Source of the DNA: an uncultured Anaerolineales bacterium
GTDB taxonomy: Bacteria; Chloroflexota; Anaerolineae; CG2-30-64-16
Length of the DNA: 64,000 bases
NCBI GenBank assembly: GCA_964551735.1
Contig: CAZKEF010000001.1
Coordinates: 209,847-273,846 of the forward strand
Reading direction: 5' to 3'
How positions within the stretch are numbered: the stretch's first letter is position 1; each line of letters opens with the position of its first letter. The notes beneath the pieces were generated by a model, which had not been told where the DNA came from, searched no databases, and saw only the letters and a list, made by a program, of their open reading frames with translations. The position numbers were made by a program, and so were the translations under genes. Positions 55,213 through 60,200 of the stretch are shown here, one piece after another.

Positions 55213-57183
55213 GTGCCTATCACAAGCTACCTGGACTTCGAGCTGGCCATCGCGCCCGCGCCCGATGGCTACCGGGCACGCGTCCAGCGCGCGCCGGCCG
55301 GCGAGGCGCAAGCATCGTTCGCCCTGCCGTTCACCGAGCAAGAGCTGGCCGACTTCCTCGAGCGCATGGTGGCCCTGCGCCGCGGCGAAGCGGGAACGGC
55401 CGGCGCCACCGATCTCCAGCTCGCCCAGGCGTTCGGAGCGAAGCTCTTCGCCGCGCTCTTCACCGGCCCGGTCTACCATGCGCTGCGCGCGAGCACGACC
55501 CGCGCGGCCCAGCAGGGCGCGGGCCTCCGCATCCGCTTGCAGCTCTCCGAAGCGCCGGAACTGGCCGTGCTGCCGTGGGAATTCCTCTACGACGCTGAGA
55601 ACGGCCGCTTCCTGGCCCTGTCCAGCGAGACGCCCATTGTCCGGCGCCTGGCCGTGGCGGCGCAGCAGACACCCCCGGCAGTGGTGGCGCTGCCCCTCCG
55701 CATCCTGGCCCTCATCGCCAGCCCGGCTGGGCTGTCCCCGCTGGATGTGGCGCAGGAGTGGAACAACCTGAACGCAGCGTTGGGTGACCTGCAGCAAGGA
55801 GGCCGCGTGGTGTTGGAACGCCTGGAGCCGCCCACCCTGTCGACGCTGCAGCGCGAGCTGCGCCAGGCGGACTATCATGTCTTCCATTTCGTGGGCCACG
55901 GCGGCTTTGACAGCGCCAGCCAGACAGGGCTGCTCTTCCTGGAAGACGAGGATGGCCAGCCCGACGCGGTGGCCGGCGACCGGCTCGGGACCATGCTGCT
56001 CGGGGCACGCGGGCTGCGGCTGGCGCTGCTGAACGCATGTGAAGGAGGCCGGACGGCCAGCGCCGACCCGTTCGCGGGCGTGGCGCAAAGCCTGATCCAG
56101 CAAGGTGTTCCTGCGGTCACCGCGATGCAGTTCGCCATCAGCGACGCCGCCGCGGTGCGCAGCGCAGGCGAGTTTTACCTGGCCCTGGCCGATGGCCTGC
56201 CGGTGGACGCCGCGCTTACCGAGGCGCGCAAGGCGGTCTTTGGAAGCGGGCTGGGTGCAGAATGGGGCACGCCCGTGCTCTACCTGCGCGGGCCCGATGG
56301 CCGGATCTTCGACTTCAGCCAGCCAACAGAGGACTGGCGCTGGCTCGCCGCCCCAGGCGTAAAGAGCGTGGATTGGTTCGTGAACCGCGAGAAGCAGCGC
56401 CTCGGCTTCCTGAAAATGCTGGCGCGGCAAACCCCAAAGCAGGTCATGCTGGTGGAAGCGCCCCAGGATATGGGCAAAACCTGGCTGCTGCAACGGTTGT
56501 TTCACGAGTGCCGGGCCCAGGGCGCACCGGTGGCGCTGGTTGACTTCCGGGACAAACGCAGTTGGGATTATCTGGCCATCGTGCGCGAGATCCGCGATCA
56601 GCTCGGCCCCGCCGCCTTCAACCGGCTCACCCAGGCCATCAACGAGGCTACCGGGCTGTCAGCCCAACGCGGCGCAGCGCTCAGTGGCGCCGCGCCCGAG
56701 GGCGAACCCATTGTCCGGGATCAGTTCTCGTTCGTCCAGGCCGACAGCGATGCCACGCGCCGCGCCATCGAGGCGCGCGTCACCGACGAGTTCCTGGCGT
56801 GCCTGACCGAGTTGCAGCAAGGCCGGGTAGTGACGCTCCTCTTCGACACCTACGACCAGGCCACGGTCGAGGCCGACCGTTGGCTGACGAGCTTCTTGTT
56901 GGCGCGTATCCGAACCGGTCTGCTGCCGCGGACGATCATCGTGATCGCAGGTCGCACCGTTCCTCGCTACGACGATAGCTGGCGAGAGTACCTGGCCTGG
57001 ACGGATCTCGCCCTTTTCGACCGCGAGCACGTTACGGAATACCTGGTGCAGAAGCGCGGCCTGACCGATGTCGATGTGCCGCTCCTCTTTGCCGCCAGCA
57101 AAGGGATGCCGGCCTTACTGGGGATCATGGCCGATAACCTGGCCGCGGCCCGCACCTCGGCCAACAATGATGACTGGCTTTAA
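55213..57183 (+). CDS. CHAT-domain protein fused to a STAND-type P-loop NTPase domain
   Basis: Probable GTG start at 55213 (RBS GGAGG), parallel to MTMIEYLDFDL of the first CHAT gene. CHAT dyad HVFHFVGHG … ALLNACEGG. It is followed by Walker A (…PQDMGKTWLL) and Walker B (RVVTLLFDTYDQ) motifs. Confidence 0.75.
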   Translation: MPITSYLDFELAIAPAPDGYRARVQRAPAGEAQASFALPFTEQELADFLERMVALRRGEAGTAGATDLQLAQAFGAKLFAALFTGPVYHALRASTTRAAQQGAGLRIRLQLSEAPELAVLPWEFLYDAENGRFLALSSETPIVRRLAVAAQQTPPAVVALPLRILALIASPAGLSPLDVAQEWNNLNAALGDLQQGGRVVLERLEPPTLSTLQRELRQADYHVFHFVGHGGFDSASQTGLLFLEDEDGQPDAVAGDRLGTMLLGARGLRLALLNACEGGRTASADPFAGVAQSLIQQGVPAVTAMQFAISDAAAVRSAGEFYLALADGLPVDAALTEARKAVFGSGLGAEWGTPVLYLRGPDGRIFDFSQPTEDWRWLAAPGVKSVDWFVNREKQRLGFLKMLARQTPKQVMLVEAPQDMGKTWLLQRLFHECRAQGAPVALVDFRDKRSWDYLAIVREIRDQLGPAAFNRLTQAINEATGLSAQRGAALSGAAPEGEPIVRDQFSFVQADSDATRRAIEARVTDEFLACLTELQQGRVVTLLFDTYDQATVEADRWLTSFLLARIRTGLLPRTIIVIAGRTVPRYDDSWREYLAWTDLALFDREHVTEYLVQKRGLTDVDVPLLFAASKGMPALLGIMADNLAAARTSANNDDWL

Positions 57184-57213
57184 AGCTCGTACCTGGCACA
57201 AAGGACGCGGTGC

Positions 57214-60200
57214 ATGACCGACGACAACGCAGCGGAGACTCTCCCTACAACACTGCCGCCAGACGAGGCGCTGTGGCCCGACGCCCCGGCAGCCACACCT
57301 GCACCCCTGCCGGAGGCGGCCCTGGCGCAGCTCGTCGCGTCCATCCTGGCCAGTAGCCATCCGGAGCTTGCGCGCTCGCTGCGCCTGGTCGCAGTACCGC
57401 TTTGGTTCGACGCAGGGCTGCTGGCCGCGCTGCGCGGCGAAAACGACGGCCGCGAGGAACGCATCCTGGCGCGCTTGAGCCAGTTCTCCTTCATTCAGCA
57501 AGCCAACGAGGGCCGCTGCACGTGTAACCGCAGCGTGCGGGAGCTCTTGCTGGCGGAGTGGCAGAGTGACCGGGACGGCTTCGAGCAGGCGCACCGCCGC
57601 GCCCTGACCGAGATCGACGCGCGGCTGGCAGCCGTAGCTCATGAGGCCCACCCCGCGGCCTATGAAGACCTGACGCAGGCACGGCTGTACCATCTGCTGG
57701 TAGCTGAACCTGCAGAGGGCATGACAGTGCTCCACCGTCTCTTCGACGCTGCGCGCGCCGAACGCCGCCTGGCCGCGGCCGAGCGCTATCTCGATCTGGC
57801 CGAGGAGTTGCGCCCCTGGCTGCCGACCGACAGGCAACCCTACCTGGACTACTATCAAGCCCTGCTCCAGCAAGCGCAGAACCGCTGGACCAGCAGCCGG
57901 GAGCAGCTCACGGCATTGGCCGCGCACATCGCCTTGACGCCAGACCTTGCTGCGCGGGTCCATCGCGGGCTGGGCCGCGCGTTGGTGGCCGAAGAGGATT
58001 GGGTTGGCGCGGTCGCCGAGCACAAGGCTGCGCTGACGGCCTTCGAAAAACTGGCTGATCAGGCCGAGGTCGCGCGCACCATGACCGACCTGGGCTACGC
58101 ATACATGGACCTGGCGCTACGCAGTTGGGGCGGTGGTGAGAGCCCTCGCATCCTACCCAGGCCCGCGCTCTGGCAGCTCGGCGAACGACTGGCTTTGCCC
58201 ATCCGGCTGCCGATCGTCATCTACCTGATGGCGCAGTGGGGCGTGGCTGCGCTGCTGCCGGCCTTGGGGCGTGTGGGTCGGGGCGTAGACTGGGTGATCG
58301 CGCGGCTGCTGGGCGAGGCGGGCGCGTGGCTGCGTCGGGCCGAGAAACGACTGCAGGCGCTGGACGACGCGGCCGGCCTGATTGCGGTGCGTGAACATCA
58401 GGCGCGCGTCTACCTGGCGCTGAACCACCCGCAAGCCGCGGCCAGGGCCTACCGCGAGCTGCTGGCGGCCGAGGGCACGATGCTCGGCGAATTCCGCGCG
58501 GCCCGTGCCCGCTTGGGCCTGGCCGAGGCGCTCCTACGCCTCGGCAAAGAACCCGCCAACACGGCCGAAACCTTGTTGGTGGCGGCGTTGCCCGTCTTCG
58601 AGGCCACCCAGCAGGCGGGGTACACCGCTCAGGCTCAAGCCTTACTGGCTGAGGCGCATGTCAGGCAACATAAGCCTGAGAAAGCCATTCCGCACTACCG
58701 GGCTGCAATCGCATCTTGGGAACAGGCCGGCCACCGTGACGCCCAGACCGATACCCTGGATCAGATAGAACTCCTCGCCGTGCAACCCGATCTGGCAGAC
58801 GCCGTCCGCGCCGAGCTGACAGCCATTGCCGAAGGCGTGCCAGTACGGCGCTACCCGGTGCGTTACCAGCACCCTCTGATGCGCGCGTTTCAGCTGGTTG
58901 CGCTGGTCGTCCTGGCCGTGTTGCTCTTCCTGACCCCCTTCATCGCCATCCGCACCGAGCGAGGAGCGATCATTGGCGCCGGTGCGCCGGTAATGAAGCC
59001 GCTTCAACCGGACGTCGAAGACGAGTTCGGGCCTGCGCTGGCGCTCAGCATCGAGCAACAGATCCGGCCCGAATTCCGAGTGCGCATCGCTGGTAATCTC
59101 ATCGGTTGGACAATCCTGGGCTACGTGGTTGCCTACTTCGCGCTCGGTCTCTACCTTATTCGGATCGCCCCCTTGGCAGCCATCCAACGCGGCCAGGAAA
59201 CTGACCTGGAACTGGATGCAGACGGGATCGGCCGTGCTGCCATGGCCAACGGCCCAGCGCAGGCGTTGCGCTGGGCCGAAATCACGCGCCTGGTGATCGC
59301 TGATCGCTGCCTGATCAGCCGGCCGATCCGTGCGCTCTCTGACACCGGCCTGCTCGCGTCCAGCGGCCGGCTTGTGATCAGCGGCCACACACGACACTAC
59401 AGCGACATCCAGCGCATTGCGCACAGGCTCAGCGCAGAGGCGCGCCGCCAAACGGTCGGCGCCACGATCCTGTGGAGCAAGATGGGTGCGCTGCTGATGT
59501 TGGCGCTGGCCTTCCTGGTCGCGTTCGCCGCTCTAGCGCGCAGCGCGCCCGAGCAAGCCATCTCGCCCCTGCCCGGCATCCCCTACAGCCTGGCCGACCT
59601 GTACGGGCTGGTCTTGCTGGGGCTGGCCGTCCCGCTCGGGTGGTGGTTCGCCATCCAACCGCTGCGCGTCCAGCTCTTGCTGCGGCCCGCGACGCAGTTG
59701 GCCTGGGGCATCGGCGCCAGCGGCATCATGCTGGCCATGCTGGCTTTCCTGCAGCACAACGTCTGGCGGCTGCCGTTGCCCCGGCCGGATGTCGCGTTTC
59801 CACTGCTAGCTGCATTGCTTAGCGGATTGGCAGCGGCGCATATCGCACGCGCCTGCTGGCTGCCCGGTGAAGCGTCTGACGCGGCGACCCAGGTCAGCAG
59901 GCCAGTCTATGTACGCAGCCTACGTTATGCAACCGGTGTACTGGCAGCCGTCGTGATCGCGATCATGATCCTGATCGCTGGCCACGAAATCCTTAGCTTC
60001 GACGCCCTGGTGCGCGCCAACGCCTATCAACGCCAGGCCGAGGCGCCGGGGACATCCAAAACCGATAAAGTCGCGCTGCATGAGCAAGCCCTGATGTATT
60101 TCGACCACTCGCTGAGCCTGACCGCAACCGCGGCGGCCCACAACAACCGGGGCGTGACGCTGGCCCAGCTAGGACGGTTCGACGAGGCGATCACGGCCTA

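Follow-up and report, generated by a model that had tools for sequence, protein, structure and literature searches.

Do genes 4 and 5 of the stretch presented here encode one protein or two? The window (i.e., the whole 64,000 nucleotides [nt] analysed, from an uncultured Anaerolineales bacterium of the Chloroflexota) carries on its plus strand a gene for a CHAT protease joined to a P-loop NTPase (gene 4), followed by a gene of 1531 amino acids (aa) for a protein that opens with a winged helix and TPRs (gene 5, ATG 57214 to 61809), and only a single stop codon stands between them. The open reading frame (ORF) of gene 4 opens with ATG 55180 and ends with TAA 57181..57183. An alternative start, GTG 55213, is preceded by GGAGG-N5, and it is the more likely true start because of that GGAGG and because the N-termini of relatives match it better. 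Positions 55180, 55213, 57181, and 57214 are all congruent modulo 3, which confirms the report of an earlier note on this sequence that the two genes share a frame; its account of a lone TAA followed by 30 nt (57184..57213) that read in frame as SSYLAQRTRC was likewise correct in coordinates and translation. That note had offered three explanations for the junction, namely a recent nonsense mutation, stop-codon readthrough or re-initiation, and a genuine two-gene split, and comparison with related loci left only the last of them standing. We conclude that genes 4 and 5 are very probably two genuine co-transcribed genes whose products are subunits of a two-piece STAND-like NTPase switch found across a large clade of Chloroflexota. 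Four observations carry this conclusion: the two-gene organisation itself, the fact that it is conserved, a break that falls in the linker between lid and winged helix, and a conserved tail at the end of gene 4. Judged from the sequence, the TAA at 57181 is a conserved boundary at which gene 4 naturally ends, and gene 5 starts from its own conserved Shine-Dalgarno sequence and ATG.

Ten related loci carrying both genes were compared, with the frames of the partner genes anchored by tblastn (Table 1). At all ten, a stop falls after the lid at the same protein position and is followed by a restart, which is the arrangement that the earlier note had singled out as speaking for two separate genes. 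In every case the protein encoded downstream is related to the gene 5 product (E-values between 1e-31 and 0); that of the Caldilineaceae locus (L001/L009), for example, has 2047 aa and aligns with gene 5 over 821 aa at 33% identity (E = 2e-90). CHAT-NTPase relatives of the length of gene 4 (P0041, 687 aa; P0007 and P0023, 684 aa each) have C-termini that coincide with that of gene 4. It is thus extremely improbable that a recent nonsense mutation or sequencing error has split a single CHAT-NTPase-TPR-transmembrane-SH3 gene of ~2200 aa and turned the locus into a pseudogene. Such a lesion would explain why a single stop stands between two genes in one frame, and single-chain relatives are known (e.g., P0208, a fused protein of 1743 aa with CHAT, NTPase, and winged-helix/TPR regions in one chain). 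However, a stop at the same position is present in L005 (83% identical), L006-L009, L011, and about 100 stand-alone NTPase clusters, and instead of the uninterrupted ORF in close relatives by which a pseudogene would be recognised, we found a stop there in every related locus examined. In 9 of the 10 related loci the partner gene is out of frame with the NTPase gene or overlaps it, gene 5 has a conserved Shine-Dalgarno sequence and ATG, and fused forms are confined to a distant sub-clade at 26–30% identity. The disabling mutation suggested in the earlier note is thus refuted by the conserved stop and restart at the related loci.

The nearest relative gives the same picture at close range. Its gene 4 counterpart, P0121 (on L005), is 83% identical and stops at the same codon as gene 4, with ...KDDEWL-TGA; beyond that stop, resemblance to the window at the DNA level collapses at once. 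The gene 5 counterpart, P0122, comes from the same sample (contig L012) and has 75% identity; around its start it agrees with the window (GCAAAGGACGCG..GCATGAC) and keeps the AAGGA-N8-ATG arrangement, with unrelated DNA further upstream. Synteny between L012 and the window is confirmed by a DUF4340 gene that is convergent to gene 5 in both (window 61847..62809, minus strand; L012 4846..5820). If L005 and L012 are adjacent, the spacer there is probably about 179 nt and the two genes are out of frame. A gene 5 counterpart in L005 starting at ATG 2248 was considered and rejected, since L012 shows the start to be elsewhere, with the conserved Shine-Dalgarno sequence.

The shared frame of genes 4 and 5 is a coincidence and no more than chance gives. 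One third of adjacent co-directional genes are expected to lie in one frame, and a 10-codon spacer at 65% GC has a ~77% chance of containing no further stop, as computed from base composition; roughly a quarter of co-directional neighbours would show such a same-frame, single-stop appearance. With the window counted, 2 of 11 loci (the window and L010) have the same-frame arrangement, against an expectation of 1/3. The same cluster provides an internal control: frame 1 holds all of genes 2, 3, 4, and 5, and a single in-frame stop, TGA 55147, likewise parts gene 3 (an SBP_bac_5 protein) from gene 4 (the CHAT protein). Because these unrelated genes show both features too, sharing a frame across one stop is in itself a poor indicator, and the pattern at genes 3 and 4, arising by chance, is a further point against a nonsense mutation at 57181. 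Over the 10.4 kb of 51373..61809, frame 1 contains only five stops (at 52975, 53002, 55147, 57181, and 61807), and the probability that genes 2-5 share one frame across three consecutive junctions by chance is ~4%.

The common frame and the lack of a second stop in the 30-nt spacer would also suit programmed readthrough of the TAA, yielding a fused protein beside the two separate products, and L010 is in frame as well, with a 24-nt spacer. We nevertheless regard programmed readthrough as very unlikely. Only 2 of 11 loci keep the frame relation (five overlap the stop out of frame), and in the closest relative the spacer has an unrelated sequence and probably the greater length given above. RNA folding of the window's spacer is no stronger than that of shuffled sequences (z = 0.08), i.e., no stimulatory structure is found, and the W-L at the very C-terminus of gene 4 argues for a selected free end. 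TAA is, moreover, the most efficiently terminated bacterial stop codon. With neither frame nor spacer conserved and no RNA element, the readthrough raised in the earlier note is without support.

That genes 4 and 5 are separate is also the pattern of the wider family. Gene 5 aa 1-560 was searched exhaustively with HMMER, giving 479 representatives, of which the best 150 (50%-identity representatives) were classified. The region lies at the protein's own N-terminus in 131 of these 150 (123 of the 131 begin with M), follows an extension of 90–140 aa without an NTPase in 8, and is fused to a gene-4-like NTPase in 11, all at 26–30% identity, so that 139 of the best 150 partners are unfused. A profile search on the other side of the junction found 120 clusters of stand-alone NTPases, with a median length of 296 aa, that cover 99% of the gene 4 NTPase module. 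(A word-indexed search with gene 4, the spacer, and the gene 5 N-terminus was swamped by CHAT matches, and with CHAT removed it returned one protein.) Among the sequences surveyed, the split form is the rule in this NTPase/partner family. The earlier note had held that the NTPase is normally followed by its sensor in one polypeptide; this stands for STAND proteins generally and fails here, given the unfused partners and stand-alone NTPase clusters. A rough neighbour-joining tree, too rough to order the fused and split states, placed the fused forms within a distal 53-leaf clade and none in the clade of the window.

When split and fused forms are aligned, the break falls in the linker that joins the lid helix with its GxP motif to the helix that opens the partner (LxxLVxxIL...LRxxAIPxWFDxxLLxxL); on P0208, gene 4 residue 653 corresponds to position 748 and gene 5 residue 40 to position 766. 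Pfam matches, alignment, and AlphaFold models thus bear out the earlier description of gene 4 as ending after a P-loop NTPase and of gene 5 as opening with a winged helix and TPRs. The last residues of gene 4 form an acidic tail ending in D-W-L. A tail of the form acidic-(x)-W-hydrophobic occurs in 100 of the 120 stand-alone NTPase clusters, and is exactly DWL in 77; the same acidic-W tail is present in L005, L006, L007, L008, L009, and L011. In the junction alignment, the corresponding position in fused relatives reads D-R-L or Q-L, with no Trp. Because the Trp-Leu is conserved at the extreme C-terminus, these data suggest that selection keeps a free C-terminal end on the split NTPases.

Gene 4 is readily recognised as a CHAT peptidase by its Pfam score and by a putative catalytic His in HFVGHGG (55885-55905) and Cys in LLNACEG (56026-56046), H240 and C287 being invariant in alignment A1. 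The NTPase that follows carries WFVNR, a Walker A motif APQDMGKT (56458-56481), and a Walker B motif VVTLLFDTYD (56827-56856), and the Walker A G-K-T and Walker B Asp are invariant in alignments A3 and A6, as the P-loop core of STAND proteins would have it. The helical lid has the GxP motif of the STAND lid (SKGMPALL, 57097-57120; consensus GGxPGLL), with an invariant Pro. At the level of profiles the domain is less distinct: the AAA_16 P-loop match at aa 400-574 scores 22.1 bits, under the cut-off of 32.6, and PDB sequence-profile searches with the NTPase gave nothing significant, with PH0952 at E = 0.19. Its AlphaFold model (pLDDT 77) has an alpha/beta core and a helical lid, with helices at model residues 222-269, and its best Foldseek matches are ORC/Cdc6/RFC-type AAA+ proteins (E about 3e-6, TMq 0.45–0.49). 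L006, L007, L008, L011, L014, and L015 lack the CHAT domain, and L013 has it as a gene of its own upstream; because of these loci and the 120 clusters of stand-alone NTPases, we consider the domain an optional addition. PADLOC recognised the CHAT domain alone at the locus.

For gene 5, an AlphaFold model of aa 1-560 from a 16-sequence alignment (mean pLDDT 87.7, pTM 0.84) has a canonical winged helix and then TPRs, with low confidence at the N-terminus ahead of the winged helix (about aa 1-33). The best Foldseek E-values against the PDB were to LGN/Pins-type TPRs, and the match of widest coverage was the STAND-TPR protein PH0952 (6mfv), with a TMq of 0.51 over 511 columns; a PDB sequence search with the gene 5 product gave generic TPR matches alone. 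Pfam TPR matches fall at aa 429-503 and aa 957-1400. Hydropathy predicts that the product crosses the membrane about seven times, and because this number is odd, the outer TPR-SH3 region would be extracytoplasmic, suggesting envelope sensing. The CHAT, P-loop, TPR, hydrophobic, and SH3 content reported in the earlier note was thus recovered with Pfam and hydropathy, although AAA_16 and SH3_3 were sub-threshold.

CHAT caspase-like proteases (PF12770) include HetF and the TPR-CHAT protein Csx29 of type III-E CRISPR. The CHAT domain at aa 84-353 of gene 4 is clear, and its His and Cys motifs are conserved, but it has no CRISPR or SAVED association, and it is joined to an NTPase rather than to TPRs and is optional in relatives. 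STAND NTPases (Leipe, Koonin and Aravind 2004) are exemplified by MalT, AfsR, PH0952, Apaf-1, Avs, and bacterial NACHT proteins. The order of effector, P-loop domain, GxP lid, winged helix, and TPR sensor is the same here, and fused relatives have it in one chain; in the window, however, the module is divided over two polypeptides at the lid/winged-helix linker. The winged helix sits on the partner (gene 5 aa 50-118) and is in cis with the lid only in the 11 distant relatives, and the C-terminal repeat array of STAND proteins is represented by the TPR solenoid of gene 5 (aa 120-545), also on the partner. The NTPase half further differs in its acidic DWL tail and the sensor half in spanning the membrane (about seven predicted segments). 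We therefore call the module STAND-like, as order and motifs fit and formal membership is unproven. A precomputed WHD_MalT match on the L015 partner was not reproduced by our own scan and was not used. ORC/Cdc6 AAA+ initiators, the best fold matches of the NTPase model, likewise have a winged helix after the lid, but no sequence similarity to them was detected, and the context here is one of a protease effector, TPRs, and a membrane partner.

Thematic parallels exist with the NTP-dependent conflict systems that Kaur, Burroughs, Iyer and Aravind described in multicellular bacteria (eLife 2020, PMC7159879), which include iSTAND. These systems resemble the present pair in occurring in filamentous or multicellular phyla including Chloroflexota, in having caspase-like effectors and STAND-type NTPases with TPRs, and in spreading their parts over neighbouring genes; they differ in having vWA or MoxR partners, which the present pair lacks. 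The gene 4 NTPase is not an inactive STAND, because its Walker A and B motifs are intact, and one stand-alone NTPase relative (L013) has a faint iSTAND match (22.9 bits against a cut-off of 24). Caspase-like effectors, STAND proteins with TPRs, and components distributed over neighbouring genes recur as themes in papers on bacterial STAND and conflict systems (PMC7159879, PMC10907252, PMC13581612). Term searches of PMC7159879 brought up no description of a lid/winged-helix split, and the family did not turn up in a non-exhaustive set of literature term searches that included all three papers.

Gene 4 supplies the CHAT protease, P-loop domain, helical lid, and acidic ...DDWL-COOH tail, and gene 5 the winged helix and TPRs followed by about seven predicted membrane segments and the outer TPR-SH3 region; we propose that the two proteins would reassemble non-covalently. 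The DWL tail could plausibly dock on the partner's winged-helix/TPR region, and the membrane partner might relay an envelope signal into nucleotide-dependent assembly and activation of the CHAT protease. The strongest form of this proposal is an obligate two-chain, membrane-spanning STAND-type switch, in which the NTPase half (here with its CHAT protease) is anchored through its invariant acidic DWL-COOH tail to the winged-helix/TPR half of a seven-pass membrane protein, the outer TPR-SH3 region senses the envelope, and nucleotide control, intramolecular between nucleotide-binding domain and winged helix in single-chain STAND proteins, is exerted between two proteins, which would make the pair a widespread and undescribed signalling or defence module of Chloroflexota; we put it forward tentatively, as somewhat less probable than its opposite. 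A number of points weigh against a two-piece switch encoded by two separate genes. Association of the two proteins is deduced from the conserved neighbourhood of their genes, the start/stop overlaps, and the way their domains complement each other, and translational coupling is less certain in the window than in relatives because the genes are separated by 30 nt and do not overlap. Low-level readthrough, as may occur at any stop codon, is compatible with the sequence alone. The STAND assignment of the NTPase draws on sub-threshold profiles, with ORC/Cdc6-type AAA+ proteins as the best folds, and the contig join between L005 and L012 consists of a 13-nt end overlap and nothing more.

Whether genes 4 and 5 are coupled by termination and reinitiation, with a restart at 57214 fixing a 1:1 output and gene 5 not initiated independently, is a question that refines the two-gene explanation more than it competes with it, and for the window we rate such coupling as possible, at rather less than an even chance. 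Five related loci have start/stop overlaps (ATGA, or an ATG lying 14–17 nt ahead of the stop), and scans of the spacer found no promoter-like and no terminator-like site, so that no promoter is placed between the genes. However, the window has a 30-nt gap in which a conserved AAGGA 8 nt ahead of the ATG permits ordinary initiation, gaps of 56–97 nt occur in other relatives, and no hairpin occluding the Shine-Dalgarno sequence is predicted. Termination-reinitiation is thus likely in the overlapping relatives, and in the window possible but not required.

For annotation, the locus should be treated as two intact genes and neither as a pseudogene nor as a recoding site. As a candidate for either of the latter it is ordinary; as a widespread, unannotated split NTPase/partner pair it is moderately interesting, and it brings out a gene pair, as yet uncharacterised, that is common among filamentous Chloroflexota. 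Switches of the STAND/NLR type are considered to need intramolecular contact between the nucleotide-binding domain and the winged helix. If the two-protein arrangement proposed here is true, a large natural family with these domains on separate proteins, a conserved terminal tail, and a sensor in the membrane would be a ready-made test of how far such regulation can be intermolecular.

Table 1. Features of genes 4 and 5 in the window, and the junction between the two genes in the window and at related loci.
Feature	Position	Strand	Evidence or remark
Gene 4, CHAT protease + P-loop NTPase (nucleotide-binding domain + helical lid)	55213..57183	+	ORF, Pfam, N-termini of relatives
CHAT caspase-like domain, aa 84-353	55429..56238	+	Pfam PF12770, 109.6 bits (cut-off 24)
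AAA+/STAND-like NTPase module, aa 398-653	56371..57138	+	AAA_16 sub-threshold, alignments A3/A6, AlphaFold model
C-terminal tail SANNDDWL, acidic run then D-W-L, free carboxyl end	57157..57180	+	Conserved in relatives
Gene 4 stop codon TAA, conserved gene end	57181..57183	+	Related loci, stand-alone NTPase tails
Non-coding spacer, 30 nt	57184..57213	+	Shine-Dalgarno-like AAGGA 57201-57205, 8 nt ahead of ATG
Gene 5, partner/sensor subunit, 1531 aa	57214..61809	+	ORF, Pfam, relatives
Winged-helix domain, aa 50-118, order H-b-H-H-b-b-H	57361..57567	+	AlphaFold pLDDT about 90; junction alignment with fused relatives
Cytoplasmic TPR solenoid, aa 120-545	57571..58848	+	AlphaFold model, Foldseek, profile matches
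Membrane region, aa 561-927, about seven hydrophobic segments	58894..59994	+	Kyte-Doolittle scan
C-terminal TPR array, aa 957-1400	60082..61413	+	Pfam TPR_16, TPR_2, TPR_1 and related
Bacterial SH3 domain, aa 1459-1511, sub-threshold	61588..61746	+	Pfam SH3_3, 17.6 bits (cut-off 27)
Junction, window			30-nt spacer, same frame
Junction, L001/L009 (one locus), Caldilineaceae metagenome-assembled genome			NTPase ends ...ADEDWLL-TGA, partner ATG overlaps stop (ATGA), different frame
Junction, L006 and L007 (genome scan)			ATGA overlap, different frame
Junction, L008 and L011 (genome scan)			Partner ATG 14–17 nt upstream of stop, different frame
Junction, L010 (genome scan)			24-nt spacer, same frame
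Junction, P0007 contig (metagenome)			56-nt spacer, different frame
Junction, L013, L014, and L015 (metagenomes)			Spacers of 97, 58, and 73 nt, respectively, different frame

Some smaller features of the junction and its relatives were also seen. A 16-codon mini-ORF (57167..57217; ATGATGACTGGC...GCATGA) begins within the D-D-W codons of gene 4, at the exact place where the Herpetosiphonaceae partner genes begin, and its TGA overlaps the ATG of gene 5; an ancestral overlapping start displaced by an indel may have left it behind, or it may be due to chance. The Herpetosiphonaceae partners (L008 2815..2930, L011 7515..7630) carry a zinc-ribbon-like CxxC...CxxC insert N-terminal to the winged helix, in place of which the Caldilineaceae partner (L001/L009) has an N-terminal extension of about 100 aa. 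Three consecutive genes at L013 (5577..12701) encode a CHAT protein (421 aa), the stand-alone NTPase with the faint iSTAND match (299 aa), and the partner (1567 aa). Within gene 5, a hydrophobic hairpin, RLPxVxYL...GRGxDWxIARL (aa 318-372, 58165-58329), interrupts the TPR solenoid and is kept even in fused relatives; model confidence over it falls to 73–88, and it may be a membrane-dipping or interface element.

The CHAT module of gene 4 (55213..56320, aa 1-380) is 50–67% identical to hundreds of proteins, whose C-terminal domains include WD40, FGE-sulfatase, SBP_bac_5, TIR, SH3, trypsin, MoxR-like ATPase, and TPR, and a second CHAT-TPR paralogue, gene 1 (48849..51419), lies in the same cluster. 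Downstream of gene 5, the DUF4340 gene is followed in the window by a 284-aa minus-strand ORF (63063..63917). Genes 2 (Peripla_BP_6; 51373 or 51436..52977, with 51436 probably the start and not 51373) and 3 (SBP_bac_5; 53032..55149) are substrate-binding-protein genes that share a near-identical N-terminal module of about 65 aa (FAEIE..LRAQHAAGTLSEADFKAQLQDLMIEDDQGRWWIIGYETGQWYVHDGEQW.PGEPP), after which come a Pro-rich linker, a single hydrophobic segment, and the binding domain; their products resemble membrane-anchored sensors that share a duplicated module in the cytoplasm.

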